DNA from: an uncultured Pseudomonadota bacterium
GTDB lineage: Bacteria; Myxococcota_A; Polyangia; Fen-1088
Assembly: GCA_963831685.1 (NCBI GenBank)
Contig: CAWHRJ010000004.1
Coordinates: 64,812 to 128,811 of the forward strand
Length of the DNA: 64,000 nucleotides
Direction of reading: 5' to 3'
This document shows positions 5,023 through 58,416 of the stretch, piece after piece. The position numbers were made by a program, and so were the translations under genes. The first letter of the stretch is position 1. Each line of letters begins with the position of its first letter. The notes under the pieces are model-generated. The model saw only the letters and a program-made list of their open reading frames with translations, searched no databases and was not told the origin of the DNA.

Positions 5023-6228
<1,206 letters not shown>

Positions 6229-6488: not shown

Positions 6489-8411
6489 ATGAGGGCCACG
6501 TTCCGTCTTGGTTTTTTCGCGGCAGCGGCGTTAATCGGCGCCGCCGGTTGTCAAGGCAAGATCAACGATCAAACCGGGTCCGGCGGGTCCTCGCAAACCG
6601 GGTCCGGCGGGTCCTCGCAGTCCGGGTCCGGCGGGTCCTCGCAGTCCGGGTCAACGGCGGGTCCTCACAGTCCGGTCAACGGCGGGTCCTCACAGTCCGG
6701 GTCCGGCGGGTCCTCGCAGTCCGGGAACGGCGGGTCGTCGACCGGCAGCGGCGGGTCCTCGACCGGCAGCGGCGGGAGCACCACGGCGTGCGTCCCACTC
6801 ACCCCACTTCCCCAGCGGCTCTGGCGGTTGTCTGTCGAGCAGTGGGATGCCGCCGTGCAGACCCTGCTCGCGCTGAAGACGGCTCCGATCCTGACCAGCC
6901 GCGGCGGCGAACAGCCCTTTGCGTTCTTCAGCGACGCCTCGCTCGGCGTCGACGCCCCAATGCAATATGACATGTACGGCCGAGCGGAAGACGTCCTGAC
7001 GACGATCGACTCCACCGTGACCACGTCGATCGCGCCCTGCACCGGAACGACCGCCTCGGCGCAGACCACCTGCGCGAACAATTGGGTGTCCACCTTCGCC
7101 CAGAAGGCCTATCGGCGCCCTCTGGACACGAGCGAGGTGACCAACCTGATGAAGGTCTACGCCCAGGGGGCGATGCAGGACTACAAGACGGGCATCAAGC
7201 TGATGATCGAGGCCATCATCATCTCGCCGTCCTTCGTTTATCGAACGGAGCTCGGTCCGCCGGCGACCGCGGACGCGAGCGGGAAATACCCGGACACCAC
7301 CCTCACGCCCTACGAGGTCGCCAGCCAGCTGGCGTTCACGTTGCTGGGTACGTTGCCCGACGACGCTCTGACCACGGCCGCCGCCAACGGCAGCCTGGGA
7401 ACGACCTCGGGCCTCCAGACGCAAATCGATCGATTGCTGGGACTGTCCGCGGTCCAGGCCAACCTGACGAACATCGTGCTCGGCTGGTTCAACATCAAGC
7501 AAGTGTTCTCGAAGCAAAAGGACACGTCGCTCCTCTCGGCCCTGTCCACGACCGAACAGGACATGACGGGGCTCCAGAACGATCTCTACACGTCGACCCA
7601 GCAGTGGGTGAACAGCATCCTCTGGAGCGGATCTGGAAAGATCGACGACCTCCTCACCTCCCAGGGCGTCTACGTCAACCAGCGATTGGCCACGCTCTAT
7701 CCGGGCCTGACGTACTCCGGGGGGAAGGCGCCGACCAGTGATTCCACCTTCGTGGCGGCGACCTTCCCGGCGTCGCAGGGGCGCAGCGGCATGCTCACCC
7801 AGCCCAGCTTCCTCTGGGCTGCCTCGGATCCGTCGGTGAATTCCATCGTGAAGCGCGGGTTGGGGATCCACGACAACGTGATTTGCCAGGACGCGCTGGG
7901 CTCTCCGGTCGACCTGTCCACCCCGATGGCCATGGCCGTCACCGCCTGCGAGAATCCTTCTGTCTCCAACCCGACGCCCGACTCGACCTGCGACAGCGAG
8001 ATCCTCAAGTCGAACGCCCGGCTGGCCTACCAGCCCTGCAAGAACTGCCACTCCCAGATGGACCCCTACGCGCGGGTGCTTCAAAACTTCGGACCCATCG
8101 GTAACTACCGAACCGTGGACGAGGCGGGGCGGTCCATCGATCCGAGCGGCACGTTCGTACCGACGTCGCCGCTCGCGGGGATGACCGTCAGCGGCGCTCA
8201 GGGCCTCGCAAGCGCCGTGGTGTCGTCGGGCGTCCTGGACGGCTGCTCGGTCCAGCAGATGACCAACTACGGGATGGGCTCGGCAATTCAAAAGTACGAT
8301 ACCTGCGAGCTCGACACGATCCGGGGTCAGACGGACGGCACCATCAAGTCCTTGTTCCGCAATGTGCTCCTCGCCAGTTTCATGCGCGCACGCACCGGAG
8401 GTATGAAGTGA
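6489..8411 (+). CDS. DUF1592/DUF1588/DUF1585-type secreted lipoprotein (planctomycete PSD-like family)
   Basis: Lipobox GAAGC and a GSGGSSQ repeat linker. Also RLWRLSVEQWDAAV (DUF1587/1595-like), FAQKAYRRPLD (DUF1592-like), TQPSFLWAAS..IVKRG (DUF1588-like) and CKNCHSQMDPYARVLQNFGPIG (DUF1585-like CxxCH). RBS GGAGG lies 6 nt upstream. Confidence 0.85.
   Translation: MRATFRLGFFAAAALIGAAGCQGKINDQTGSGGSSQTGSGGSSQSGSGGSSQSGSTAGPHSPVNGGSSQSGSGGSSQSGNGGSSTGSGGSSTGSGGSTTACVPLTPLPQRLWRLSVEQWDAAVQTLLALKTAPILTSRGGEQPFAFFSDASLGVDAPMQYDMYGRAEDVLTTIDSTVTTSIAPCTGTTASAQTTCANNWVSTFAQKAYRRPLDTSEVTNLMKVYAQGAMQDYKTGIKLMIEAIIISPSFVYRTELGPPATADASGKYPDTTLTPYEVASQLAFTLLGTLPDDALTTAAANGSLGTTSGLQTQIDRLLGLSAVQANLTNIVLGWFNIKQVFSKQKDTSLLSALSTTEQDMTGLQNDLYTSTQQWVNSILWSGSGKIDDLLTSQGVYVNQRLATLYPGLTYSGGKAPTSDSTFVAATFPASQGRSGMLTQPSFLWAASDPSVNSIVKRGLGIHDNVICQDALGSPVDLSTPMAMAVTACENPSVSNPTPDSTCDSEILKSNARLAYQPCKNCHSQMDPYARVLQNFGPIGNYRTVDEAGRSIDPSGTFVPTSPLAGMTVSGAQGLASAVVSSGVLDGCSVQQMTNYGMGSAIQKYDTCELDTIRGQTDGTIKSLFRNVLLASFMRARTGGMK
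6570..6782 (+). repeat. about 9 tandem copies of a 24-nt unit (caRWccgggtccggcgggtcctcg) encoding GSGGSSQ(S/T)
   Basis: Units read directly: 6570, 6594, 6618, 6642 (26 nt), 6668 (25 nt), 6693, 6717, 6741 (21 nt), 6762 (21 nt). Confidence 0.9.
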
Positions 8412-9982
8412 TTTCCTACAAGTTTGCTCGTCGCTCTTTCCTTCGCGGTCTGGGCGGGTCGGCGGCGATGATGGTTCCGCTGCTGCGCTCCATCGAGGCT
8501 CGCGCCGCCGGTGTCACCGCCCCTTTGCGGTTCTTGGTCATCCACCACCCGCTGGGGACGGCGTCGGGGCTCGCCAACTGGCGTCCGAACGCCAGCGCAA
8601 CCACGACCAACTTCACGCTCCCGGTGGAGAGCGCCCCGTTCCAGCCGCTCCAGAAGTACATGGTGATGGTCGACGGCGTGAACGTCGTCGCGGCGACCAG
8701 CCACTCGAGCGGCGGGACCAGCCCGGACACGAAGGGCGGCGGTCAGAATACGCATGAGGGCGGAATGGTCGCCATCATGACCGGGGTGCCGACCATCGGC
8801 ATGGTGGGGCAGGAGGATCACTGCGCCGGCGGTCCTTCGATCGATCAGATCCTCCTGCAACAGTCGGCCGGGCTCGGCGGGCCGGCCTTTGCGAAGCCGA
8901 CACCTTTTCCGTCACTGCAGCTGGCTGCCGACATCCGCTCCGATCGGGACGAGAAGGCGCCTCGGGTGTTGTCGTACCTGGCTCCCAAGAGCGGCGTGAG
9001 CGATCCGGACCAGGCTCGCCAGCCGCTCTATCCCGATACCTCACCGCTCGCCGTGTTCAACCGGATCTTCGGGGGTTCTCTGCCTACCGGAACGAACACA
9101 GCGCAGCTGCTGGCGCAAAAAGAGAGCGTCATCACCTACCTGAAGAGCGACTTGGCTCGCCTGCAGACATTGGTGCCGGCCAGCGAAAAGGACAGGATCA
9201 CGGCGCACACCGACGCGATCGCGCAGCTCGAGGCGAGCATTCAGCAGATGTACGGCATGACGACGCAGACATCGGTGTGCAGCAAGCCCAGCGCGCCCCC
9301 CGATTACTCGAATACCAGCTCCGGTAAACAGGGCTCGGGCTCCGTCTACAGCGACCTCGGTGGCGTCGATTACTACGTCCCCAATCAGCCCAGCAGCCAC
9401 CCGCACATCGATCTCGGCCAGACGCAGCTGAGATTGATCAAGGCGGCATTCCTGTGCGATCTGACCCGGGTCGCGACCTTCATGTGGTCGGCAGGAACCA
9501 ACTGGGTGGTGTTCCCGGGCACGTTCCAGGGGGCCACGATCGCCGGCAACCCCCAGTCCAGCCCCCACCATCCCCCCAGCCACTCCGGCGACGCCGCGAC
9601 GAACGGTTGGCTGAATCAGATCGACCAGCTCTACTCCTCCGCGACCTCCACCGTGCTGCAGGAGTTCGCCACGACGCCCGACATCGACGGGAACATGCTG
9701 CTCGACAACACGGTGGTCGTGTACCTGACCGAGGTCGCGCGCGCCTCCGATCACAACCAGCAGAACATGCCGCTGTTGATTTTTGGTGGGAAGAACACCA
9801 GGGTGAAGGGCGGCACGTACCTGAAGGTCACCGGCGGCTCTCTGAGCGCCCAGACGGGCGGCTCGGGAAACAGGCCGTTCAACGACGTCTGGTTGGCCCT
9901 GGCGCCGGTCTTTGGCGTGACCATGAACAGCCTAGGTGCCCAGAGCCAGTACACGGGCCCGCTTTCGGGCATCTTTTCCTAG
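8408..9982 (+). CDS. DUF1552 domain protein with twin-arginine signal
   Basis: GTG start overlaps the upstream stop (GTGA). Has a Tat-like RRSFLRGLGG and DLTRVATFMWSAG. This is the canonical partner of DUF1592 proteins. Confidence 0.85.
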   Translation: MISYKFARRSFLRGLGGSAAMMVPLLRSIEARAAGVTAPLRFLVIHHPLGTASGLANWRPNASATTTNFTLPVESAPFQPLQKYMVMVDGVNVVAATSHSSGGTSPDTKGGGQNTHEGGMVAIMTGVPTIGMVGQEDHCAGGPSIDQILLQQSAGLGGPAFAKPTPFPSLQLAADIRSDRDEKAPRVLSYLAPKSGVSDPDQARQPLYPDTSPLAVFNRIFGGSLPTGTNTAQLLAQKESVITYLKSDLARLQTLVPASEKDRITAHTDAIAQLEASIQQMYGMTTQTSVCSKPSAPPDYSNTSSGKQGSGSVYSDLGGVDYYVPNQPSSHPHIDLGQTQLRLIKAAFLCDLTRVATFMWSAGTNWVVFPGTFQGATIAGNPQSSPHHPPSHSGDAATNGWLNQIDQLYSSATSTVLQEFATTPDIDGNMLLDNTVVVYLTEVARASDHNQQNMPLLIFGGKNTRVKGGTYLKVTGGSLSAQTGGSGNRPFNDVWLALAPVFGVTMNSLGAQSQYTGPLSGIFS

Positions 9983-10021
9983 CCATACCTGACAGGCCAC
10001 CCCCGATAAGGAGCATTGTTT

Positions 10022-10696
10022 ATGAGGACTGGTTCCCTCTGTGCAGGCGTGGGCCTGACGCTGCTGTCGATGTTCGCGATCTCTTGTTCCAGCAACGACA
10101 TGATGCCGACGACCGGCACGGGCGGAAGCGGGGGGGGTACGGGAGGCGGGACGGGAGGCGGGACGGGAGGCGGCAGCGGGGGATCATCGGCAGCGGGCAT
10201 CTGCGGGACGCTCATGAACTATGCGCCCACCACCAGCACCGCCCCGTCCTTTGCGACGGACATTTACCCGATCTTGAGCAACACGGATCCGGGCACGTCC
10301 GACGCCCCGGCACCAGGATGCGGGCAGACGATGATTTGTCATGGGAACCCGCCGGCCCCCATCAACATGGACGGGACCATCTTCCAGTCGTTTGTCGATC
10401 CGCCGGCCACGGTGAAGACGGGCTTGCTGAGCAATGCGGTCAACGCCCCCTCGATGAAGCGGGTGGACCCCGGGCACGTCGGGACCAGCTTCCTGGCGTA
10501 CAAGATCTCCGGCGCCGACGGCGTCGCCTGCGTGTCGTCGGCCTGTCCCCCGAACACGACCGTTGGGAATACCCAGCCCTGCGGCGATCCGATGCCCAAT
10601 CAGAACGGCCACGGCGTCGGGCCGGGGGCGGCGGCGCTCACCGACGCGGAACGTTCGAAGATCCTCGACTGGATTGCGCTGGGCGCTCACGATTGA
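10022..10696 (+). CDS. lipoprotein with Gly-rich linker and PSCyt-like (planctomycete cytochrome c-like) domain, CX5CH variant
   Basis: AAGGAG RBS 8 nt before ATG 10022 (the track ORF starts at TTG 10016). Has a lipobox-like ISCSS, a GTGGG repeat linker, YPIL...GCGQTMICHG, and a C-terminal ILDWIALGA. Confidence 0.65.
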   Translation: MRTGSLCAGVGLTLLSMFAISCSSNDMMPTTGTGGSGGGTGGGTGGGTGGGSGGSSAAGICGTLMNYAPTTSTAPSFATDIYPILSNTDPGTSDAPAPGCGQTMICHGNPPAPINMDGTIFQSFVDPPATVKTGLLSNAVNAPSMKRVDPGHVGTSFLAYKISGADGVACVSSACPPNTTVGNTQPCGDPMPNQNGHGVGPGAAALTDAERSKILDWIALGAHD

Positions 10697-10700
10697 CCCG

Positions 10701-11282
10701 ATGCGGCTGATCCAGATCGACGATGTGATCCCGCAGCCGTATCAGGACCAGCTCGAGGCGGAGACGTCTGCCGTCGGTTGGTTTTTTCATAAAGAGACCG
10801 CCCGGCCCGGGCTGGGCTTCGCCCGCAATTACCCGGGATTCTTCCACATGGCCTTCGACGCCGCCTCGCCGGTGGCGGTCACCTCGAACATCAACGCGCT
10901 CTTGGTACCGCTCCTGTTCGTGTCGATGGACAAGGCCAAGTTGAAGTTGAACGACCTCATCCGGGTTCGCCTGGGCATGTTCCCCCAGACGCCGCTGGAC
11001 GTTCCGTATCACAACCCGCACGTCGACTTTTACGATCCCCACCTGGTCGGCCTTTACTACGTCAATGATTCCGACGGCGACACCGTCGTTTTCAACGAGA
11101 CCTCTGACCAGGTGGGGCTCGAACAATCCGCGGCCTACGCCAACCAGGGCAAGTTCACCGAGCTGGCGAGGATCACCCCCAAGAAAGGTCGGATGGTGTT
11201 CTTCGACGGAAGGCACTACCACGCCAGCATGCACCCCAGGTCGCACGCCCAGCGAATTGTGGTCACCTTCAACTTTCGGTAG
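10701..11282 (+). CDS. 2OG-Fe(II) oxygenase superfamily protein
   Basis: ATG lies 4 nt after the upstream stop. Has an HxD motif (HNPHVDF), a distal His (HYHASMHP) and a downstream Arg (RIVVTFNF), consistent with a 2-His-1-carboxylate facial triad plus a 2OG-binding Arg. Confidence 0.6.
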   Translation: MRLIQIDDVIPQPYQDQLEAETSAVGWFFHKETARPGLGFARNYPGFFHMAFDAASPVAVTSNINALLVPLLFVSMDKAKLKLNDLIRVRLGMFPQTPLDVPYHNPHVDFYDPHLVGLYYVNDSDGDTVVFNETSDQVGLEQSAAYANQGKFTELARITPKKGRMVFFDGRHYHASMHPRSHAQRIVVTFNFR

Positions 11283-11312
11283 CCCGACCCACCTCTAGGC
11301 TGAATCGAGCCG

Positions 11313-12650
11313 ATGCCTTTCACGCCCGCCATGGCCGCTGGACTGCGGTGCCCCCGCTGCACCGAGGGAGGAGCGCTGGACCTTGTCGCCAATTCGTTGC
11401 GGTGCCAGACGTGCCAGACGCGGTACCCGTTCGTCGGGACGATCCCCTGCTTGGTGCCGGATCCGCCGCTGTGGCATGCGCTGTGGTTGAATCGGTTGGC
11501 GGAGTTCGTTTCCGATACGCAGGCGACGCTGGCGGAGTGGCGAGCTGCGGCCGACACGCGAGAGAGCCAGCCCCGCACGCGCGCCCGGATCGATCGCGTC
11601 ATCGCCGCTTGCGAAGACCAGCGCGCCCGCGTGGAGGCGCTGTTCGAGGACCTGAGGCAGGGACAGCCCCAGCTTCTGCCCACCCGCCCAGAGTCGGGCA
11701 CCAACCCACTGCTCGAGTTCTCGGAGAATCTCTTTCGCGACTGGGTCTGGGGCGATAGAGAGGCCGAGCTGACCCGGGCTCTGGTCGCGAACCTGGTGGA
11801 CCAGCCCGCGGGACGCCTGGCCGTTTACGGGGCCGGCGCCGGCCGCCTGGCGGTCGACGTGCACCAGTCGCTGGCGTCTGTCGAGACCTGGGCGCTGGAT
11901 CTGAACCCGCTGCCGTTCCTGGTCGGCGAGCGTCTGGTTCGGGGCGAGACCGTGACGCTTCCCGAGTTTCCCGTCGCGCCGCATGGCGAGCGAGACGTGG
12001 TCCTCGAGCGCGAGCTTCGCTGCCCATTTCCGGTGCGGGAGGGGTTCGCCTTCGCGTTCGCGGACGCCTTGCGGCCCCCCTTCGCGCCGGCCTCGCTGGA
12101 CACCGTGTTGACCGCCTGGTTCATCGACGCCACCGGCCGGGACTTTCGGGAGACCGCCGCCGCGGTGAACCGCGTCCTTCGGCCGGGCGGGCTGTGGGTG
12201 AATTTGGGGCCACTGCGCTTCAAAGAGAGCCTGGCCCAGAACTACACCATCGAAGAGATCTGGGACCTGGTCGCGTCCAGCGCATTCGACCTAAGTAAGC
12301 GGGGCCGCGACGACCTCCCGTATTTCGATTCGCCCGTGAGCGGCTCGCGCCGCATCGAGACCGTTTTCTGGTTCGCTGCCCGTAAGTCCGGCGAGGCGGA
12401 GACTTTCCTGTCGTCCGACGACACGCCCCCCTGGATTGCCGACGCCAGCTTGCCGATTCCGATGACGCCAGCGTTGGTCGCCTTCGGACGAAAGTCCGTG
12501 TTTGCCGGCAGCGTCATCTCGTTGATCGACGGCGCCCGGTCCTTGTCGGAGGTGGCCGACGAGATGGGACGCCTCTGGGGGTTCGATTCGGCACGGATCC
12601 TGGACCAACTCCGCGCGTTCTTCGCCACGTTGCCGCTGGACGGCGCATGA
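11313..12650 (+). CDS. SAM-dependent methyltransferase (N2227-like) with N-terminal Zn-ribbon and C-terminal PqqD-like segment
   Basis: CPRC...CQTC ribbon, motif I VYGAGAGRLAVD, an N2227-like block VLTAWFIDATGRDF...VLRPGGLWVNLGPLRF, and a tail SLIDGARSLSEVADEMGRLWGFDSARILDQLRAFFATL. Confidence 0.7.
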   Translation: MPFTPAMAAGLRCPRCTEGGALDLVANSLRCQTCQTRYPFVGTIPCLVPDPPLWHALWLNRLAEFVSDTQATLAEWRAAADTRESQPRTRARIDRVIAACEDQRARVEALFEDLRQGQPQLLPTRPESGTNPLLEFSENLFRDWVWGDREAELTRALVANLVDQPAGRLAVYGAGAGRLAVDVHQSLASVETWALDLNPLPFLVGERLVRGETVTLPEFPVAPHGERDVVLERELRCPFPVREGFAFAFADALRPPFAPASLDTVLTAWFIDATGRDFRETAAAVNRVLRPGGLWVNLGPLRFKESLAQNYTIEEIWDLVASSAFDLSKRGRDDLPYFDSPVSGSRRIETVFWFAARKSGEAETFLSSDDTPPWIADASLPIPMTPALVAFGRKSVFAGSVISLIDGARSLSEVADEMGRLWGFDSARILDQLRAFFATLPLDGA

Positions 12651-13069
12651 GCTCTCGGGCTGACAGCGGCTGCCGGGGGAATGGACCGATTCGCGCCATG
12701 TTCTTGCCGAGGCTCGCAGCGCTGAGCGCGGTGGCCGCCTTGCTGGCGGGAGGGTGCTTGGGCTCGACGGACGACAGGCCGGCCAAGTGGTCCTTCATCT
12801 CGGCGATGATCACCGAACCGAGCTGCGCGACCGTGAACTGTCACTCCCAGATCAGCCAGCGCGCCGGGGTGGATCTGCACGCGCGCGAGATCGGCTACTA
12901 CACGCTGAAGAACGGCTTCTACGTAATCCCGAACGACAGCGCCGATTCGTCGCTGATCTACCTGCTGAATGCGTCCGGATCACTTCGGATGCCGCCCGAC
13001 AATCCTCTGCCAACCGCCGACGTCGTTCTAATCGAGAAGTGGATCGACGACGGCGCGGCCAACGACTGA
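12647..13069 (+). CDS. small PSCyt-like lipoprotein, CX4CH variant
   Basis: ATG overlaps the upstream stop (ATGA). Has lipobox LAGGC, CATVNCH, RMPP, and a C-terminal LIEKWIDDGAAND. Confidence 0.65.
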   Translation: MSSRADSGCRGNGPIRAMFLPRLAALSAVAALLAGGCLGSTDDRPAKWSFISAMITEPSCATVNCHSQISQRAGVDLHAREIGYYTLKNGFYVIPNDSADSSLIYLLNASGSLRMPPDNPLPTADVVLIEKWIDDGAAND

Positions 13070-13081
13070 TTGCGGAGAGAG

Positions 13082-14251
13082 ATGCGACGACGGGTCCTCT
13101 ATGCGGTCGCGGGATGGCTCTTTCTGATGGGCGGGCGGGCGATGGCGTATCCCCAGTTTCAGTTCAGCTCGGGGACCACCCGCTGCAGCCAGTGCCACTA
13201 CGATCCGGCCGGCGGCGGGCTCATCACCGCGTGGGGGCGTGACGAATCAGGCGACACGATCAGCTTGGGCGGCGACGGCGGCTTTGCCCACGGCGCCTGG
13301 ACGCCCCCTTCGTGGCTGGCGCTGGGCGCCGACGTCCGCCTGGCGGCGTTGTACAACGACTCGGGCGGGCCCCAAGGGGTCGAGCTCGACGCGTTTCCCA
13401 TGCAGGCGGACGGGTATGCGCGGTTCGCCTTCACCCAGCAACTGTCCCTGTACGTCCAGGGGGGCTTCCGCGGCGATACGCGGCCGGCGGACGCATCGGT
13501 GGGCGGGCGGTTCAGCACGCTCGGCGATCGGGTGATCTCGAACGAGCACTATCTAATGTGGAAACCGGGGGGCACCGGGCCCTACCTGCGGGCCGGGCGG
13601 TTCTTCACGCCTTACGGCCTGCGGTTCGTCGAGCACATCTACTGGGTCCAGCGCTACACCGGCTACGACCTCTACAACGAGACGTACAACCTGTCCGGGG
13701 GGCTCCTCGAAGAGGAGTGGGACCTGCACGTCTCCGCGTTCACACCTCCCCCCGAGAGCTTCCCCGACGCTTTGCAGTCGGTCGGCCGGCGCGAAAGCGG
13801 CGCGGCCGCCTACGCCGAGAAGCGGTGGGACGGGACCGCGATGCTGGCCCTGCAGGCACGGCTCGGGTTCGGCAGCGAGGTCAACCGGTATCAGGGCGGG
13901 GCCGTCGGCAAGCTGTGGCTGGAGAAGGGGAGGGCGCTGCTGCTGGGTGAGGCGGACGTTATCCGCGCCGTTGTCAGCGCGGCGTCCGCCGGCGAGACCC
14001 AGCTGGTGACGTACCTGGGCATCGACCTCGTCCCCAAACGCGGCTGGATGCTGGGTCTTGCGCACGAGCTTTATCAGGAAGACATCTCCGTGAAGGGGAC
14101 CTCGCACGACGCCTTCGATCTGGAGGTAAACTTCTTCCCCTGGTCGCACTTCGAGCTGCTGGCCTTCGGGCGATATCAATTCACGGGGACGGGCGGCACG
14201 GGCGAACCGTCCGCCTCGATGTTCATGCTGCAGCTCCATTACTACCTGTGA
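13082..14251 (+). CDS. outer-membrane beta-barrel-like protein with N-terminal CxxCH motif (paralog of 55333-56520)
   Basis: Signal peptide ending AMA, then CSQCHYDPAGGGLITAWGRDESGDT. Has alternating beta-strand-like composition and the terminal LQLHYYL. Shares MQAD, LRAGRFxxPYGLRxxEH and LLGEAD with the paralog. An alternative TTG start lies at 13070. Confidence 0.7.
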   Translation: MRRRVLYAVAGWLFLMGGRAMAYPQFQFSSGTTRCSQCHYDPAGGGLITAWGRDESGDTISLGGDGGFAHGAWTPPSWLALGADVRLAALYNDSGGPQGVELDAFPMQADGYARFAFTQQLSLYVQGGFRGDTRPADASVGGRFSTLGDRVISNEHYLMWKPGGTGPYLRAGRFFTPYGLRFVEHIYWVQRYTGYDLYNETYNLSGGLLEEEWDLHVSAFTPPPESFPDALQSVGRRESGAAAYAEKRWDGTAMLALQARLGFGSEVNRYQGGAVGKLWLEKGRALLLGEADVIRAVVSAASAGETQLVTYLGIDLVPKRGWMLGLAHELYQEDISVKGTSHDAFDLEVNFFPWSHFELLAFGRYQFTGTGGTGEPSASMFMLQLHYYL

Positions 14252-14802
14252 GACATCCCATGCGCGCACCTCAGCTCTCCCCAATGCTGTCGGCTCTGGC
14301 GAGCGCCGTGGCAGTTGTCGGGCTCGCGTCGTGCTCGACGACCGTCGCCACCGCCCCGGCAGAGCCCGCCTATGACGTAGACGTGCGCCCGATCCTGATG
14401 GTCCACTGCGCCCGTTGTCACGGGGCGGGCGGCTCTCTCAACGTCCCCACCGAGCCGACGGGACCGGACGCGGCGGTGCTGCCCGGCATCCGGACCCTCG
14501 CCGCCATGTTCCGGTCGTATCGATGTTTCCTGGATAGGTATCCGGAGGACAACGGCCAGTGCGGGTTGGATGGCGGCGCGCGTTCGGCGAGCTGCCAGCT
14601 CGGCGCGCTCTATTGGGCGAAACTCCATTCCATCAGCGCGACGATTGACCAGACCAGCGGTCCGACGCAGATGCCGCCACCCCCGGCGCAGGCGCTCAAC
14701 GACTGGGAAAAGCAGGTCCTCCGCAACTGGGAGGAGAACCCGATCTGCTCGAACTCGCCGAACCCGGATACGACCATCTGTCCGCCCGGCTCGGGCCCCT
14801 GA
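14248..14802 (+). CDS. small CxxCH lipoprotein (PSCyt-like)
   Basis: GTG 14248 overlaps the barrel stop (alternative ATG at 14260). Has lipobox GLASC, RPILMVHCARCHG, QMPPPP and LNDWEKQVLRNWEE. Confidence 0.65.
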   Translation: MRHPMRAPQLSPMLSALASAVAVVGLASCSTTVATAPAEPAYDVDVRPILMVHCARCHGAGGSLNVPTEPTGPDAAVLPGIRTLAAMFRSYRCFLDRYPEDNGQCGLDGGARSASCQLGALYWAKLHSISATIDQTSGPTQMPPPPAQALNDWEKQVLRNWEENPICSNSPNPDTTICPPGSGP

Positions 14803-50638: not shown

Positions 50639-50751
50639 CGAGATCCCTACGATCTGACAGGATATCAGGAGGCCAAACTTCGTCGAGCCAGGGCCACCGG
50701 AGTCCGGCCCTTCGATCCTTGCCAGCGCCCGCCCGCGCGTATGATCCCGTC

Positions 50752-51558
50752 GTGCCTAGCGTGGGTCAGACCGGCTGGAGCCGCGCGAGGTGGCGGCCGG
50801 CGGTGACAGTCATCGTGCTCTGCCTGTTGGCCGGACGGAAGGCGCGGGCCGTCGACCCCTTCGAGATCCAGGTCTACGACGCTTCGATCAATCCCCCGAT
50901 GACGGCCGGGATCGAGCTGCACGTCAACTCGGTCGTGTCGGGGCTCGAGACGGCGCCACCACCCGAGCTGCCACCGAATCACCAAACCCACCTGACCGCT
51001 GAACCATCGCTCGGGCTCACGACTTGGTGGGAAGTGGGAGGGTACGTCCAGTCGACGATTCGACGCGACGGTGGCTTCGACTTCGCCGGGGTGAAGCTGC
51101 GCTCGAAGCTCGCGCTTCCACCGGCTCCGGGAAGCCCGTTCCGGTGGGCCGTCAACTTCGAGGTGTCATGGTTGCCCGCAGCGTACGACGCCGCTCGATG
51201 GGGCGCCGAGGTCCGACCCATCGCGACGGCGTCGGTTGCAAGCGGGCGACTTTTCTTCGCCGTGAACCCGATCCTGGACTGGGATCTCGCCGGCCCGAAC
51301 GCGGCCGCCAGGCCCGCTCTGGAGCCCGCGGTCGCCGGGCTCTTCGTCGTCGAGAATCTTCTCTCGGTGGGGTTCGAGTACTACGCGAGCTTCGGGCCAA
51401 TCGGACGCTGGCTACCCGCGGCTGCGGAGGAGCAGTACCTGTACGAGGTCATCAACCTCGACCGGTGGAAAAGATGGGACCTCAATTTCGGCGTGGGGGA
51501 GGGGCTCACGGACGCCTCGAACCGCTTTGTTGTCAAAGCGATTTTGGGCTTTCGCTGA
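50752..51558 (+). CDS. hypothetical outer-membrane beta-barrel protein
   Basis: Signal-like RWRPAVTVIVLCLLAGRKARA, beta-strand periodicity, and terminal AILGFR. The start is uncertain (track TTG 50719; GTG 50752 or 50761). Confidence 0.5.
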   Translation: MPSVGQTGWSRARWRPAVTVIVLCLLAGRKARAVDPFEIQVYDASINPPMTAGIELHVNSVVSGLETAPPPELPPNHQTHLTAEPSLGLTTWWEVGGYVQSTIRRDGGFDFAGVKLRSKLALPPAPGSPFRWAVNFEVSWLPAAYDAARWGAEVRPIATASVASGRLFFAVNPILDWDLAGPNAAARPALEPAVAGLFVVENLLSVGFEYYASFGPIGRWLPAAAEEQYLYEVINLDRWKRWDLNFGVGEGLTDASNRFVVKAILGFR

Positions 51559-51673: not shown

Positions 51674-52516
51674 ATGCGAATCTCGCCCCTCAATCGGATT
51701 TTGATGACGCTCGTCGTGACCGCGGCCCTCTACGGCTGCGCCCAGAGCGAGCCGATCAATCTCTTCGTCCTCCTGCCGGACGGCGGTGGACAGTCCGGAG
51801 GGGCGACGGGAAGCGGGACCGGCGGCGACAGCTCGAGCAGCGGGGGGAACCAGGGCTCCGGCTCGGGCGGTACCGGAACTACCGGGAATGGCGGTTCCGT
51901 CGGGACGGGCGGCTCCGGTACCGGGGGCACCGTGAGCGGTGCCGGCGGCTCAACCGGCAGCGGTGGCTTGACCGGAAGTGGCGGGTCGGTCGGAACGGGC
52001 GGCTCCGCCACCGGGGGCGTGACGGGCAGCGGGGGCCTGACGGGCAGCGGTGGCCTCACAGGCAGCGGTGGCCTCACAGGCAGCGGTGGCCTCACAGGCA
52101 GCGGTGGCTCCATCGGAAGCGGGGGCACGACGGGCACCGGCGGATCGACCGGCTCGGGCGGGAAGGGCGGAACCACGGGGACGGGTGGCTCGACCGGCTC
52201 GGGCGGCACGACGGGCACCGGCGGCGCCGGTGGCGCGGCGGCCCCGACTTTCACGCAGGTCTACAAGCAGATCTTGACCGTCTACTGCGCGGGAAGTCAG
52301 TGCCACAACCCTGGGTCGCAGCGCGGGATGGCGTTCGCGACGCAATCGGGTGCCTACACCTGCGTATTGACCGTGGTGACACCGGGGAACGGCGCCAACT
52401 CCAGCTTCTACAAGACGGTCAACGGTGGGTCGATGCCCCCGGGTGGACCGAAACTGTCGGCCGCCAACCTCGCGCTCATCAAAGCCTGGATAGACGCCGG
52501 CGCGCTCAACAACTGA
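51674..52516 (+). CDS. lipoprotein with GSGGxT repeat linker and PSCyt-like domain, CX4CH variant
   Basis: Lipobox LYGC and a long Gly/Ser/Thr linker, then ILTVYCAGSQCHNPG, GSMPPGG and LIKAWIDAGALNN. Confidence 0.7.
   Translation: MRISPLNRILMTLVVTAALYGCAQSEPINLFVLLPDGGGQSGGATGSGTGGDSSSSGGNQGSGSGGTGTTGNGGSVGTGGSGTGGTVSGAGGSTGSGGLTGSGGSVGTGGSATGGVTGSGGLTGSGGLTGSGGLTGSGGLTGSGGSIGSGGTTGTGGSTGSGGKGGTTGTGGSTGSGGTTGTGGAGGAAAPTFTQVYKQILTVYCAGSQCHNPGSQRGMAFATQSGAYTCVLTVVTPGNGANSSFYKTVNGGSMPPGGPKLSAANLALIKAWIDAGALNN
52025..52114 (+). repeat. five tandem 18-nt units (ggcagcggtggcctcaca) encoding GSGGLT
   Basis: The three central units (52043, 52061, 52079) are identical; the flanking units are slightly diverged. 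Confidence 0.9.
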
Positions 52517-53626: not shown

Positions 53627-54292
53627 ATGGCTGCCGTTCGTCCACACAAAACCGTGCTCAGCGTCGTCCCGGGCGCCGAAGCGTCCCGGGCGGAACGCCG
53701 TCCGCGCCGCAGCGATGACGAGATCCTGGCGGGGCTCCGGCGCGGCGACCTCGAGGTGGCGGAGGACTTCTACTGGCGCGTCAAACCGGTCGTGGATCGG
53801 ACGGTTCGCCGGTTGATGGGGCGGATGGACAGCGACGGAGAGGATCTCATTCAGATTGCGCTCATCCAGCTCATCGAGTCGGTGGCCCATTACCGCGGCG
53901 AGTGTGCCCTCGATGCCTGGGTCTCCACCGTCTCGGCACACGTCGTCTACAAGCACATCCGCCGCCGGCGGCTGGAGCGGACAATCTTCGCCGCGGCGCT
54001 GGACGACGACGAAGAGATCGCGGTCAGCCCGAGGTCCAGCAGCGTCGACGCGATGTCGCTTCGCCGGGCGCTCGGGCAGGTCGCCGAGCATCTGTGCACG
54101 ATGCGGGAGGAGAGATCGTGGGCCTTCCTGTTGCACGACGTCTGTGGCTACTCCCTCGACGAGGTCGCGCACATCTGCGGGATCTCGGTCGTCGCCGCCC
54201 AGAGTCGGCTCGTCCGTGGGCGCCGCGAGATCCACGACCGGATCGCGGCTGATCCTCGCCTGGCGGAGATTCTCGATCGGGGTGAGCCGTGA
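53627..54292 (+). CDS. ECF-type RNA polymerase sigma-70 family factor
   Basis: Region 2 (DLIQIALIQLIESVAHY...LDAWVSTVSAHVVYKHIRRRR) and region 4 HTH (YSLDEVAHICGISVVAAQSRLVRGRREI). Confidence 0.85.
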   Translation: MAAVRPHKTVLSVVPGAEASRAERRPRRSDDEILAGLRRGDLEVAEDFYWRVKPVVDRTVRRLMGRMDSDGEDLIQIALIQLIESVAHYRGECALDAWVSTVSAHVVYKHIRRRRLERTIFAAALDDDEEIAVSPRSSSVDAMSLRRALGQVAEHLCTMREERSWAFLLHDVCGYSLDEVAHICGISVVAAQSRLVRGRREIHDRIAADPRLAEILDRGEP

Positions 54293-55293
54293 CCACGTTC
54301 CGCTACGCCGAGCGCGCGGCCCGACTGCTCCGTGCGGCACGCGCGCGGATCCGGCCGCACCGGTCGGCGCCTCCCGAGAACGCCATCGCGGCCATCGCCG
54401 AGGCGATCGAGCGCACCGCCTCTCGGCAGCGGCGGCGGCGGGTGGCGACGGCGGCGGGGTTCGCGACCGCGATCCTGGGCGCCCTCGCGCTCGTGGCCGC
54501 CGCACCCTGGAGATCACCTGGAACTATCGCGCTCGTGCCGATGCGGGTGCCAGAGAACGTGCCGAGAGCGACGCTCGTGGCCGGCTCCGAGGTGCGCGCC
54601 ACGCTGGCGAGCGCGGACGGGCAGCTCCGGCCCCTCCCGGCCGGACACGCGTGGGTTTCGGACGAGCGGCTGCAGACCGACGCGCTGCCGGTCGCGCTGG
54701 CGGGTGAGGACGGTACGACGGTCGACCTCGAGCCGCGGTCCGACCTGAAGTTGTTGCGCGCCGACGCCGAGCAGTGGCTTCGCCTGGGACGCGGTGCTGT
54801 CGCCCTGCACGTCGCAAAGTTGAAAGCCGGGCAGCGCTTCGTCGTCTTGACACCCGACGCAGAGGTGGAGGTCCGCGGCACGCGCTTTCACGTGGCGCTC
54901 GCTTCACCCGACGAGAACTGCGGCCATGGCACGCCCACGCGCGTCGTCGTGGACGAAGGCGTCGTCGTGGTCCGCTCGGCGGCGGGGGAGGTTCGCGTTC
55001 CCGCAGGACAACGCTGGCCGGCCGCCTGTCCGGCGCCGCCTGCGGCCGAACCGCCGCCCCCATCGGTCGCGATGAGGCGCCTGCCGAGACCCGTGCTGGC
55101 GACGCCTGCTTCGACCCTGGCGACGGAGAACGACCTTTTCGGTGCCGCTTTGAGAGCCGAGCGCTCCGGAGATCGGGCCGAGGCCGCTCACCTGCTCGAC
55201 GCCCTGCTGACGAGATTCCCTCAGACCCCACTCCGAGAGAGCGCGCAGCGTGCGCGGGCGCGCATGACGGCAACCACGCTGCCGTCGCGATAG
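54289..55293 (+). CDS. FecR-domain anti-sigma factor (single-pass)
   Basis: GTG overlaps the sigma stop (GTGA). One TM helix (AAGFATAILGALALVAAA). FecR-like beta region GQRFVVLTPDAEVEVRGTRFHV. Confidence 0.75.
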   Translation: MTTFRYAERAARLLRAARARIRPHRSAPPENAIAAIAEAIERTASRQRRRRVATAAGFATAILGALALVAAAPWRSPGTIALVPMRVPENVPRATLVAGSEVRATLASADGQLRPLPAGHAWVSDERLQTDALPVALAGEDGTTVDLEPRSDLKLLRADAEQWLRLGRGAVALHVAKLKAGQRFVVLTPDAEVEVRGTRFHVALASPDENCGHGTPTRVVVDEGVVVVRSAAGEVRVPAGQRWPAACPAPPAAEPPPPSVAMRRLPRPVLATPASTLATENDLFGAALRAERSGDRAEAAHLLDALLTRFPQTPLRESAQRARARMTATTLPSR

Positions 55294-55332: not shown

Positions 55333-56520
55333 GTGCCTCGCCGCTTCCGCCATTCGGTTCTGATAGTCATTGGTGTCTTCTCGGCCATCGCGCTGGCGCC
55401 TCGTCGTGCCCACGCCTACGCGTGGATGATCGGTCACGGTTACGCCGGCTGCGCGGGCTGTCACCTCGATCCGTCCGGCGCCGGCCTCTTGAACGAGTTC
55501 GGCCGAGAGGAGGCCGGCGACACCCTACGCTCCCGCTATGGCAGCGACCCGCCGCCGGTCGAGCCATTTTTCGGTCTCTGGAAGAATCCCGACTGGCTTC
55601 TCACCGGGGGAAGTTTTCGCGATGGGATCTTCTTCATGAAGGCAGGCGCAGCGCCCTACTCCCAGCAGAACATCTTGATGCAGGCCGACCTGCGGGTGGG
55701 CATCGACGCGGGCCGCTGGCGAGCCGCCGGAACTCTCGGCGTCCTGCCGAACGGAGACTTCCCAGCGGCGGTGGTGACGTCCAGCGGCGGCCCCAGCCTG
55801 GTGGCGCGGGAGTATTGGGTCGGCTACACGTTCGAGAATGACGCCATCTTGCTGCGTGCCGGCCGGATCAACGTGCCCTACGGCATACGATCGATCGAGC
55901 ACACGCTGTTCGTGCGGCAGGCGACGCAGACCGATATCAACGACACGCAAGAACACGGGATAGCCCTGTCTTTGCGATGGAGCGGACTCCGTGGCGAGCT
56001 CATGGCCATCGCCGGCAACTATCAGGAGTCTCCCGATGCCTACCGCCAGCGCGGCTACAGCGGGTACCTGGAATGGAGCCCGCAAGGCCGCTACGCCTTC
56101 GGCGTCAACAGCCTGGTGACCTACGCCAAACAGGACGTCTCCCTTGGGGTCGCCAATCTTCGCCAGGCTCACGGTCTGACGGTGCGGGCGTCGCCGGTCG
56201 AGAGGCTGGTCTTGCTCGGCGAGGCCGACTACGTGGCAGAAGGCTTGTCGGGCCAGCCGCACTGGAATGGCCTGGCGACGATGCTGCAGGCAGACTTCGA
56301 GCCCTGGCAAGGGTTACATTTCATCGGCACGGGCGAGACCTACGGCTCGGGGCAGCCCACGACCGAAACCTCCTGGAGCGTGTGGGGGAGCGTGGCGTGG
56401 TTCTTCTACTCGCACGTCGATGTTCGGTTCGACTACGTCCATCAGAGTCTCTCCACGCCTCCCCCCGAGGGGCGCATTCCAATCGAGACATACTTGGTCC
56501 AGCTCCATCTCTTCTTGTGA
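55333..56520 (+). CDS. outer-membrane beta-barrel-like protein with N-terminal CxxCH motif (paralog of 13082-14251)
   Basis: Signal peptide ending AHA, then CAGCHLDPSGAGLLNEFGREEAGDT. Shares MQAD, LRAGRINVPYGIRSIEH and LLGEAD with the paralog. Terminal VQLHLFL. Confidence 0.7.
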   Translation: MPRRFRHSVLIVIGVFSAIALAPRRAHAYAWMIGHGYAGCAGCHLDPSGAGLLNEFGREEAGDTLRSRYGSDPPPVEPFFGLWKNPDWLLTGGSFRDGIFFMKAGAAPYSQQNILMQADLRVGIDAGRWRAAGTLGVLPNGDFPAAVVTSSGGPSLVAREYWVGYTFENDAILLRAGRINVPYGIRSIEHTLFVRQATQTDINDTQEHGIALSLRWSGLRGELMAIAGNYQESPDAYRQRGYSGYLEWSPQGRYAFGVNSLVTYAKQDVSLGVANLRQAHGLTVRASPVERLVLLGEADYVAEGLSGQPHWNGLATMLQADFEPWQGLHFIGTGETYGSGQPTTETSWSVWGSVAWFFYSHVDVRFDYVHQSLSTPPPEGRIPIETYLVQLHLFL

Positions 56521-56528
56521 GGCCGTCC

Positions 56529-57038
56529 ATGCGGACCAAATCCCTATCTACGCTGCTGATGGTTGGGTCAGCCGGGCTCTGTCTGACGCTCGAGCCCGCC
56601 CCGGCACGGGCCATTTCTCGCTTTCCAGGCAACATGATCGACTATTTCACGCCGCCTCTCGGATACACGCCGCCCTGCCGTGTTTGTCACATCGATGGGA
56701 CAACTGGCTCGGGCAGCGTTCGAACGCCGTTCGGCATATCGATGCTCGCGCACGGGTTGACGAGCGGCCGGGGCACGCTCACCCCTGCCCTCGACGCCCT
56801 CAAGGCAGACAACGTCGACAGTGACGGAGATGGTGTGTCGGACATCGACGAGCTCGTCATGAACACCGATCCGAACACCAGCGCCGACGTCCCGCTGTCG
56901 GCGAGCGGTCCTTCTTACGGCTGCGCGGTCGCGGCCGGGCAGGGCGGAGAACCGGCCGGGCTGGCCTTGGGAGCCCTCTTCGTGGCCGCTCTCGTAGTCA
57001 GGCGCCGCCGTCCTCGTCCGCGCGTCGACGGCGAATGA
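56529..57038 (+). CDS. secreted CxxCH protein with thrombospondin-type-3-like Ca-binding repeat and MYXO-CTERM-like tail
   Basis: Signal peptide, PPCRVCHIDG and DSDGDGVSDIDE. The tail is YGCAVAAG + hydrophobic helix + RRRRPRPR. Confidence 0.7.
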   Translation: MRTKSLSTLLMVGSAGLCLTLEPAPARAISRFPGNMIDYFTPPLGYTPPCRVCHIDGTTGSGSVRTPFGISMLAHGLTSGRGTLTPALDALKADNVDSDGDGVSDIDELVMNTDPNTSADVPLSASGPSYGCAVAAGQGGEPAGLALGALFVAALVVRRRRPRPRVDGE

Positions 57039-57057: not shown

Positions 57058-57582
57058 TTACCTCTTCCCTTCCGACACTCGTGTGGGCGAGGCCGATCTG
57101 GGCGCCTCGGTCCCGCGAAGGAAGTAGCTCTTGAGTCGCGCCTTGTCGCCCGCCGACAGCTTCGCCGTGGGATGCATTGGGAAGACGTAGAACCAGGGCG
57201 GCATTTCGCCGGACTCCACCTGCTCCCAGCAGGTCTCTAGATCGTCCCCGCGCTCGTCCTCGTCGACACCGCGCCACTCGGAAAAGTTGAGATGCGTGCG
57301 ACCCTTGTGGACGTCGCGGGCCATCAGCCAGGAGCCTGGTGCGAGGCGACTGTAAAGGGGCCATCGCGTTTCGTTCGTGTGGCAGTCGAAGCATGCGCGT
57401 CTCAGGATGGCCGCGACCTCGGCTGGGGCATCGATCTGAAAGCGCTCGGGCGGGTTCGTCCCAACGTCTTTGACTGGGATGAACTGGATTCCAGCCCCCA
57501 CCACGACCGACCCGAGCCCAGCGAGCTTGACCGCCCTCTTGATGCGAGAGCGCACGTCCGAACCACGACCGACCACGCTCAA
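57058..57582 (-). CDS. haem-binding-domain (Haem_bd family) membrane-anchored protein
   Basis: N-terminal TM anchor. CFDCHTNETRWPLYSRLAPGSWLMARDVHKGRTHLNFSEW and EMPPWFY match the Pfam Haem_bd pattern as I remember it. Confidence 0.8.
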   Translation of the reverse strand: MSVVGRGSDVRSRIKRAVKLAGLGSVVVGAGIQFIPVKDVGTNPPERFQIDAPAEVAAILRRACFDCHTNETRWPLYSRLAPGSWLMARDVHKGRTHLNFSEWRGVDEDERGDDLETCWEQVESGEMPPWFYVFPMHPTAKLSAGDKARLKSYFLRGTEAPRSASPTRVSEGKR

Positions 57583-58064
57583 CCGGCCGGCGTGCGGGTG
57601 CTCGCGGAGACCGGCTGGCTGCCATCGACGGTGATGCTGCCGTCCGCGGCGATCGTCACCGCGTAGTGCTGGAGCGGCGACCGCGCCGGTCCGCTCGTCG
57701 CGCTTCCGTTGCCGTCGAACGTGGAGCCGTGGCAGGGGCAGCTCAGCCCGGTGGCGATCTTGTCGGCGCTGTCATCGAGTAGGCATCCGGCATGCGTGCA
57801 TACCGCGGACATCGCGTAGACGCCGTTCGCGTCCCGCGCCACAACGAAGTTCGTCATGACCAGGAGTGATCCGACCGCCAGGGCCGATATGTTCCCCGCA
57901 CCGACGGGGCCGGTCGGTGGCGAGCCGGTCGGATTCATACAACCCGATACCGCGCCGCCCATGACCACCAGACCCGTCGCGGCGCCGGCCAGAATCAGCA
58001 GCTCGCGGCGATTGACCGCCCGTTTGGAACAAGTGGAACAGCGGTCCGTTTCGTCGTTGGCCAT
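57579..58064 (-). CDS. Rieske [2Fe-2S] domain lipoprotein with Tat-type signal
   Basis: NRRELLILAGAATG twin-Arg signal with lipobox VSGC. Cluster ligands CTHAGC ... CPCHGS. Overlaps the downstream gene by 4 nt. Confidence 0.85.
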   Translation of the reverse strand: MANDETDRCSTCSKRAVNRRELLILAGAATGLVVMGGAVSGCMNPTGSPPTGPVGAGNISALAVGSLLVMTNFVVARDANGVYAMSAVCTHAGCLLDDSADKIATGLSCPCHGSTFDGNGSATSGPARSPLQHYAVTIAADGSITVDGSQPVSASTRTPAG

Positions 58065-58349
58065 CGCCTGCCCTCCGCGAGCTCAGTGCCGTCGGGTCTC
58101 GATGAGCAGGCAGATGCGGACACCGATCACGAATCCGGATCTAGACAGCTCGAGCTGTTCGGATCGCAGATCTGATGCCCGAGCAATCGGACGTCGTCAG
58201 GCAACCCACGCATCGGTCCGTCGTGCGATCGCAGCGTGGGAGCGGCCTCGCCATACGCAGAATGTCTACTCGCCCGACCCGGCTTTGCAGGCGGTCGAGC
58301 TGGTCGTCGTCCTCCCCCGGTCTGAGCCGGCAGAAAAAAACAGCCGACG

Positions 58350-58398
58350 CCTGCCTGCTTTCGAAGGCCTGGGGGTACTGGATGCTGCAACAGGCGGA
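58350..58398 (+). promoter_or_regulatory. conserved upstream element, copy 2 (cctgcctgctttcga-N5-tgggggtact-N12-aggcgga)
   Basis: See 51603-51651. Ends 18 nt before ATG 58417. Lies in the divergent region between the Rieske operon and 58417-59859. Confidence 0.6.
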
Positions 58399-58416
58399 GA
58401 TCTGCCTAGCTCCAGG

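Follow-up and report, generated by a model that had tools for sequence, protein, structure and literature searches.

How can a protein that folds as an outer-membrane barrel carry a heme-attachment motif at its N-terminus, and what might such a protein do? The question is raised by two genes, here called copy 1 and copy 2 (Table 1), in a 64,000-nucleotide stretch of DNA (the window; contig CAWHRJ010000004.1) from an uncultured bacterium of the Polyangia. The original prediction, made from the sequence, described them as paralogs of about 390 aa with a CxxCH head on a barrel-like body. We conclude, with a probability of about 0.72, that each of the two genes codes for a Cyc2-type protein of the outer membrane, in which a monoheme cytochrome is fused to a porin. 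Its most likely role would be that of a one-heme electron conduit across the outer membrane. A heme motif on a barrel had been regarded as out of the ordinary; it turned out that this is the already published build of Cyc2 (Keffer et al. 2021, PMC8406198). The Cyc2-type heme-plus-porin build is therefore already known, and what is new here is a large unannotated family.

The window contains 357 open reading frames (ORFs), and a hidden Markov model (HMM) of the family finds copy 1 and copy 2 among them and no others. The two genes lie on the + strand, and their products are 25% identical over the full length (BLASTP, E 3e-19), which confirms that they are paralogs. The previously quoted motifs MQAD, LRAGR-x3-PYG[LI]R-x2-EH and LLGEAD were located in both copies, and the aromatic/hydrophobic C-terminus reads QLH-aromatic-aromatic-L in each. 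The ORF list starts copy 1 at TTG 13070. However, a Shine-Dalgarno-like run GGAGAGAG lies just 5' of ATG 13082, and homologs begin at the Met encoded by this ATG; thus ATG 13082, the start given in the original prediction, is the likelier one. Judged from the sequence, the signal peptides end in A-x-A, with MRRRVLYAVAGWLFLMGGRAMA in copy 1 and MPRRFRHSVLIVIGVFSAIALAPRRAHA in copy 2, each followed by Y. The AlphaFold2 models place an N-terminal helix at residues 3-23 (copy 1) and 4-21 (copy 2). The CxxCH does follow the signal peptide, but not directly as had been stated: it stands 13 residues (copy 1) or 12 residues (copy 2) past the predicted cleavage site. In the predicted mature chain of copy 2, the first Cys of CAGCH is residue 12 and the His is residue 16. 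A scan for sigma-70 promoters around copy 1 gave no promoter-like site, and terminator-like sites were no commoner there than in shuffled sequences.

The family is large, unannotated and so far seen in Polyangia only. Word-indexed searches returned at least 854 relatives for copy 1 and 1152 for copy 2, every one either unnamed or filed as "hypothetical protein". When 1.84 billion cluster representatives were searched exhaustively with a profile, 2518 members were recovered at E <= 1e-3, each a representative at 50% identity, and 609 at E <= 1e-30. Every organism-named match belongs to Polyangia, Polyangiales, Polyangiaceae or Kofleriaceae, and a single metagenome-assembled genome (MAG; locus tags VHG72_) holds at least three members. 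Pfam and NCBIfam scans of copies 1 and 2 gave no usable family model, and the cytochrome domains Cytochrom_C and Cytochrome_CBB3 of Pfam did not match either copy at E <= 1.

The CxxCH motif is nearly universal in the family. It occurs within the first 120 residues of 487 of the 492 proteins of at least 340 aa, and the five exceptions have wrong or fused starts. Exactly one CxxCH is present in 371 of 389 proteins, and 271 of 487 members have no cysteine beyond the CxxCH pair. The residues C39, C42, H43, P46 and G48 are invariant in 36 diverse relatives, as are M111, Q112, D114, R174, G176, G183, H189 and H390 farther along. The alignment of homologs, which had been proposed as a check of the motif, thus shows an essentially invariant Cys/Cys/His triad. 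Since the second Cys is followed by His in 487 of the 492 proteins and more than half of the members have no other cysteine, heme attachment is favoured over a disulfide. When the head profile was compared with the Protein Data Bank (PDB), five weak and not significant matches were obtained (E 0.31-3.8); each of them is to a heme-c protein, and in the three cases with an alignment, which are likewise not significant, it falls on a CxxCH site.

Structure prediction bears out the barrel. For copy 2, AlphaFold2 run with 69 sequences gave 16 strands with a pLDDT of 91.4 and a pTM of 0.86; its head is modelled with short helices at 30-35, 55-65 and 78-81 (block pLDDT 79-89). For copy 1, with 25 sequences, the model also has 16 strands, its pLDDT is 69, and the head (residues 22-75) is of low confidence. 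Foldseek against the PDB returned outer-membrane barrels exclusively, mostly 16-strand ones of the PorB, OmpT, Omp32 and OmpC/F types. Copy 2 resembles the phosphate- and pyrophosphate-selective porins OprP (2o4v) and OprO (4rjw), with TM-scores normalised to the query of 0.57 and 0.56, respectively; these porins have no heme and, unlike the window proteins, no N-terminal CxxCH head. The Pfam family Porin_O_P (PF07396) weakly matches residues 158-254 of copy 2 (E 0.005; 16.5 bits, below the gathering threshold of 20.9) and does not match copy 1. It is matched at E <= 0.1 by 34 of 69 copy 2 relatives (best E 7e-6) and by none of 35 canonical Cyc2 proteins. The LRAGR...PYG.R..EH block, in general form R-x-G-R...P-[YF]-G-[LI], lies inside the matching residues; therefore, it is a porin feature and not a new motif. 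A sequence search of the PDB with the family profile gave only a chance match to YajQ (E 0.97), and no experimental Cyc2 structure turned up in the PDB sequence and Foldseek searches.

A sixteen-strand barrel with one N-terminal heme motif is the layout of Cyc2, in which a signal peptide and one N-terminal CxxCH precede a porin of 16 strands that was modelled on OprO/OprP (PMC8406198). Cyc2, Cyc2PV-1 and Cyt572 are outer-membrane Fe(II) oxidases of Acidithiobacillus, Zetaproteobacteria, Gallionellaceae and Leptospirillum (PMC8406198), and Cyc2PV-1 has been shown experimentally to be a heme-stained Fe(II) oxidase of the outer membrane (Keffer et al. 2021, PMC8406198). The Cyc2 signature is AxPxFAR[Q/K][T/Y] before CxxCH and PxL after it; the head is the most conserved part, and the barrels are poorly conserved (PMC8406198). 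For comparison, a degenerate DNA pattern was used to draw 120 canonical Cyc2-type loci from genome assemblies, among which are Acidithiobacillus, Sideroxydans, Gallionella, Ralstonia, a Myxococcales MAG and Anaeromyxobacter. In hhalign, the family matched 35 canonical Cyc2 proteins locally with 95.6% probability (E 1.2e-8, 355 columns) and 83 of them globally with 98.7% probability (E 2.7e-15). The statement that no named family could be recognised thus holds for the Pfam and NCBIfam models and fails for Cyc2. Canonical Cyc2 proteins have no Pfam or NCBIfam model either, so the missing annotation is uninformative.

The similarity resides in the head. Head against head, the profiles match at E 7.8e-9 over 33 columns. 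Four of five Cyc2 sub-clusters match the family at E 5e-8 to 1e-6, every match running through the head. When CxxCH was deleted from both profiles, the heads still matched at E 4.5e-4. The segment downstream of CxxCH alone gave E 4e-5 (LLTxYGR in the family, LNxFGR in Cyc2), and the upstream segment alone gave E 0.019 (AYPWMIR and AIPAFAR). The order and spacing of the elements also agree: A-x-A, x-P-x-[F/M]-x-R, a Cys at mature position 12 or 13, and P...L-[NT]-x-[FYW]-G-R. In copy 2, Cys 12 and His 16 occupy the same positions as in the canonical Cyc2 set, and in the Cyc2 of A. ferrooxidans the heme His is H16 of the mature protein according to a modelling paper. In all, the family shares with Cyc2 a Sec signal peptide, a single CxxCH that occupies mature residues 12-16 or 13-17 in a putative heme head of about 50 residues, an OprO/OprP-like 16-strand barrel, an overall length of 390-400 aa, a cytochrome head that is the best-conserved part, and a gene that often adjoins a periplasmic cytochrome gene. 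Canonical Cyc2-type genes with the full FARKYGTSCLTCH head occur in the Myxococcales MAG and in Anaeromyxobacter sp. (L015 and L032 of our set). Myxococcota thus hold both canonical Cyc2 and the divergent Polyangia type. A literature search joining Cyc2 with Polyangia-type names gave no mention of Cyc2 among the top-ranked matches.

The genes next to the barrel gene were compared at ten sampled places, that is, at eight loci of relatives (L121-L128) and at the two window copies. Copy 1 is one of eight closely packed genes, of which only the last three stay together in relatives. In all five sampled loci of this type 1 module, the barrel gene is preceded by a gene for a Cx4CH lipoprotein and followed by one or two CxRCH lipoprotein genes. 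The upstream lipoprotein of copy 1 matches Pfam PSCyt1 (E 4.5e-6); its gene has a 4-nt start/stop overlap with the gene before it, and in L121, L123, L127 and L128 a counterpart immediately precedes the barrel gene. The start of the downstream gene overlaps the stop of copy 1 by 4 nt. Its product is 44% identical to that of the gene downstream of the L121 barrel, and CxRCH proteins occupy the same place in L123, L127 and L128. Because just these genes recur, the conserved unit is the cytochrome-porin with one or two small cytochrome-like partners. In the type 2 module, found in four to five of five sampled loci, the barrel gene is followed by a gene for a PPCxVCH MYXO-CTERM protein, which in every case stands right behind the barrel gene. 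Besides its signal peptide, this partner contains PPCxVCH..TG....TPFG, the thrombospondin-type-3 repeat DSDGDGV.D and a sorting signal of the MYXO-CTERM type; from its sequence, it would be a surface-anchored cytochrome with one heme. In the window its gene starts 9 nt past the stop of copy 2, and the product matches NCBIfam MYXO-CTERM (E 4.8e-5) and Pfam TSP3_bac. Homologs follow the barrel gene in L122 (9152-9634), L125 (7083-7598) and L126 (7121-7537), and a fragment is present in L124.

Table 1. Positions of the two putative cytochrome-porin genes and of the neighbouring features within the window.
Feature	Position	Strand	Description
Copy 1, predicted fused cytochrome-porin	13082..14251	+	389 aa from ATG 13082, 393 aa from TTG 13070; in order: signal peptide, predicted heme head, barrel of 16 strands
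CSQCH, predicted heme-c attachment motif of copy 1	13184..13198	+	aa 39-43, then YDPAGGGLITAWGR
Copy 2, predicted fused cytochrome-porin	55333..56520	+	395 aa; identical protein in NCBI/ENA
CAGCH, predicted heme-c attachment motif of copy 2	55450..55464	+	aa 40-44
Eight packed genes, operon-like	6489-14802	+	Several 4-nt stop/start overlaps; in order: DUF1592-family (PSD4/PSD5/PSCyt3/PSD2), DUF1552 (HXXSHH), Cx5CH lipoprotein, 2OG-Fe(II) oxygenase, CARME-like methyltransferase, Cx4CH PSCyt1-like lipoprotein, barrel (copy 1), CxRCH lipoprotein
Cx5CH lipoprotein	10016-10696	+	PSCyt1/LIC11213-like
Upstream partner of copy 1	12647..13069	+	140-aa lipoprotein, CATVNCH (Cx4CH), MPP...WI..GA tail
Downstream partner of copy 1	14248..14802	+	184-aa lipoprotein, CARCH, MPPPPA..LNDWE
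Cx4CH lipoprotein (CAGSQCH)	51674..52516	+	PSCyt1/LIC11213-like; 2.8 kb upstream of copy 2
ECF sigma factor	53627-54292	+	Pfam Sigma70_r2/r4_2; upstream of copy 2
FecR-type anti-sigma factor	54289-55293	+	Pfam FecR; immediately 5' of copy 2
Downstream partner of copy 2	56529..57038	+	Secreted, about 169 aa, PPCRVCH...TPFG, TSP3 repeat, MYXO-CTERM

Linkage to DUF1592/DUF1552 genes was considered as a defining feature of the family and rejected: among the ten sampled places it occurs in the window and in L125 only. In L125, PSD-family gene fragments adjoin a copy-2-type module. The DUF1592-family protein of the copy 1 cluster had been said to echo the CxxCH head in a DUF1585-type motif. It does contain CKNCH...DP at aa 517, but this lies inside the PSCyt3/DUF1588 domain (432-543) and not in DUF1585 (564-625). 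The three paralogous lipoproteins encoded at 10016-10696, 12647-13069 and 51674-52516 have a common tail MPP...L...I..WI..GA and carry Cx4CH or Cx5CH instead of CxxCH; two of them have long Gly/Ser/Thr-rich linkers. The one encoded 2.8 kb upstream of copy 2 matches NCBIfam LIC11213_lipo at E 2.2e-7, below the cut-off. L127 and L126 hold divergent family members; in L127 a cytochrome P460 gene (7763-8203) joins the module, and in L126 a YceI gene (5474-6004) precedes the barrel gene and overlaps its start. This hints that the substrate or the partner set varies between sub-branches. The extracytoplasmic function (ECF) sigma factor and the FecR-type protein are a possible regulator of copy 2; an ECF sigma factor is also found near the barrel gene in L124 and L128 and not in L122, L125 and L126. 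Convergent to the copy 2 module lie a Haem_bd gene (PF14376, E 4e-37) and a Rieske [2Fe-2S] gene (57058-58064, - strand) overlapping by 4 nt; no such pair was seen beside family members at the other sampled loci. The + strand near copy 2 also encodes a 638-aa secreted protein (60390-62306) with no Pfam match, built of about eight tandem Cys-rich units CC.PNCP.DGS..G.SDGCG.TC.C..G. Two further ORFs on this strand (50719-51558 and 57856-59859), also with no Pfam match, have C-terminal halves in which hydrophobic residues alternate and which thus read like beta-barrel outer-membrane proteins.

A number of observations weigh against assigning the family to the Cyc2 type. The sequence tie to Cyc2 depends on about 33 head columns. 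Between the family barrel and the Cyc2 barrel no significant match was obtained (E 0.018; controls, reversed and shuffled, 0.26-0.94), and barrel-only profiles gave no significant match to all Cyc2 or to the five Cyc2 sub-clusters. For this reason, homology of the barrel to Cyc2 is not claimed; it is not significantly alignable to Cyc2 barrels and is nearer to Porin_O_P. The motif PxFAR[Q/K][T/Y] is present in none of 487 family members and in 83 of 85 canonical Cyc2 proteins. At this place the family reads A-Y-P-[QW]-[FM]-[QI]-[FR]-[SH], the window proteins have P-Q-F-Q-F-S-S and A-W-M-I-G-H-G at the equivalent site, and the degenerate A-x-P-x-[F/M]-x-R survives in only part of the family. 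After CxxCH the family has x-[DS]-P-[SA]-G-G-G-L-[LI]-[TN]-x-[WYF]-G-R. Its Pro is at +3 and its Leu at +8-9 from the His, in contrast to +4 and +6 in Cyc2, so that the Pro is one residue nearer and the G-rich segment three residues longer. An HMM of 83 canonical Cyc2 proteins matches no ORF of the window at E <= 1, and with the filters off it gives the two proteins -0.4 and 3.5 bits. Seven arginines are invariant (R90, R174, R273) or nearly so (R134, R177, R185, R241) in the 36 relatives, and an anion-selective barrel of the OprO/OprP kind with such residues fits cationic Fe2+ poorly. For the distal heme ligand there are only candidates, the invariant M111, H189 and H390. The hosts of the family are Polyangia, and to our knowledge cultured Polyangia are aerobic heterotrophs that are not known to oxidise iron. 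The partners also differ from those of Cyc2, being PSCyt1-like lipoproteins with Cx4CH or CxRCH, or else a putative MYXO-CTERM cytochrome; none of the sampled family loci showed a gene for Cyc1 or rusticyanin. By the criteria for Cyc2 of Keffer et al. 2021 and FeGenie, the family shares the Sec signal peptide and the single N-terminal CXXCH in both copies, as well as a length of 365 aa or more and a porin domain of 16 strands (389/393 and 395 aa; both models). It lacks the PXL motif about four residues past CXXCH. The motif PXFAR[Q/K][T/Y] served as the screening filter for the published Cyc2 tree (PMC8406198), and these rules would have excluded the family from that tree.

It is possible to read the same data as an independent fusion, in which an OprO/OprP-type anion porin gained a class-I-cytochrome-like heme peptide apart from Cyc2 and serves a substrate other than free Fe2+. 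This could be an anionic species such as chelated iron, an oxyanion of sulfur or nitrogen, or a quinone-like shuttle; export of electrons and removal of peroxide would be further candidates. The absence of the signature motif, the conserved barrel arginines and the Porin_O_P matches, found among the copy 2 relatives and not among canonical Cyc2, are in line with such an origin, as are the varied neighbours such as P460 and YceI. It is also noted in the literature that distant Cyc2 homologs may function otherwise (Keffer et al. 2021, PMC8406198). The lack of a significant barrel match speaks for a separate origin less than it may seem, since Cyc2 barrels are poorly conserved and such a result is expected even for true homologs. 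Moreover, the head matches Cyc2 on either side of CxxCH, in the same order and with nearly equal spacing from the signal-peptidase site, and chance convergence does not readily explain this. We therefore consider an independent fusion, the main rival, to be improbable.

Two other explanations are much less likely than this rival. The proteins could be heme-free anion-selective porins whose CxxC(H) makes a disulfide or holds a non-heme metal, as it might in a plug or gating segment. The OprP/OprO-like fold, the weak Porin_O_P match, the lack of a cytochrome Pfam domain on the protein and the low confidence of the head in the copy 1 model would agree with this. However, conservation of the His past the second Cys equals that of the cysteines, the head shares homology with the heme-binding head of Cyc2, and the genes are constantly linked to those of other CxxCH proteins. 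The P-x-G...L..[WYF]GR context, which we take to be like the segment that follows CxxCH in class I cytochromes c, points the same way, and a heme-free porin is very improbable. Still less probable is a component of iron or heme sensing or uptake that is controlled by, or signals through, the products of the adjacent sigma factor and FecR genes and is not an electron conduit. These genes stand directly upstream of copy 2, and ECF sigma factors occur near the family members in L124 and L128. The pair is missing in L121, L122, L123, L125, L126 and L127, the protein has no TonB-dependent transducer domain, and the conserved neighbours are cytochrome-like proteins. A porin of the MtrB/PioB/MtoB type was rejected, as there are 16 strands and not 26, and no multiheme neighbour. 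MtrAB, MtoAB and PioAB likewise use an outer-membrane barrel to let heme-borne electrons cross, but their 26 strands surround a separate decaheme protein, whereas here 16 strands would go with one fused heme. The conserved module of the family has no multiheme gene; its neighbours carry one CxxCH or Cx4CH each.

If the proteins are Cyc2-type cytochrome-porins, as we favour, they would work as follows. The protein would be exported by Sec, and the signal peptide would be cut after A-x-A. Heme c would be attached at the CxxCH 12-13 residues into the mature chain, and the remainder of the protein would fold as an OprO/OprP-like 16-strand barrel, with the heme-bearing head of about 50 residues at or inside its periplasmic mouth. 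A small redox-active solute would enter the pore from outside and swap an electron with the heme; if Cyc2 is taken as the guide, the solute would be dissolved Fe2+. We hold Fe(II) oxidation specifically to be a tentative assignment with somewhat less than an even chance. From the heme, the electron may then go on to the small proteins resembling c-type cytochromes whose genes adjoin the barrel gene. In the case of copy 1 the acceptors would be two periplasmic lipoproteins, and in the case of copy 2 the MYXO-CTERM protein, which is probably anchored at the surface.

Cyc2 is the main marker gene for iron-oxidising bacteria in genomes and metagenomes, and Polyangia are abundant soil myxobacteria. 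Thousands of members of the family are filed as "hypothetical protein" because they fail the motif filter and the canonical Cyc2 HMM is blind to them. Polyangia may bear lineage-wide, multi-paralog one-heme cytochrome-porins that form, together with partner cytochromes of their own, one of which is surface-anchored through MYXO-CTERM, a system of extracellular electron exchange or iron redox unseen by Cyc2 screens; we consider this broader proposal doubtful at present. If it is true, gene-based soil surveys of iron cycling and extracellular electron transfer overlook a major group of organisms. With two or three genes each, the conserved operons offer a compact system for studying how a single-heme porin hands electrons over to its partners. 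If these proteins bear heme and move electrons, they would represent an unexplored redox interface between aerobic soil myxobacteria and their surroundings.

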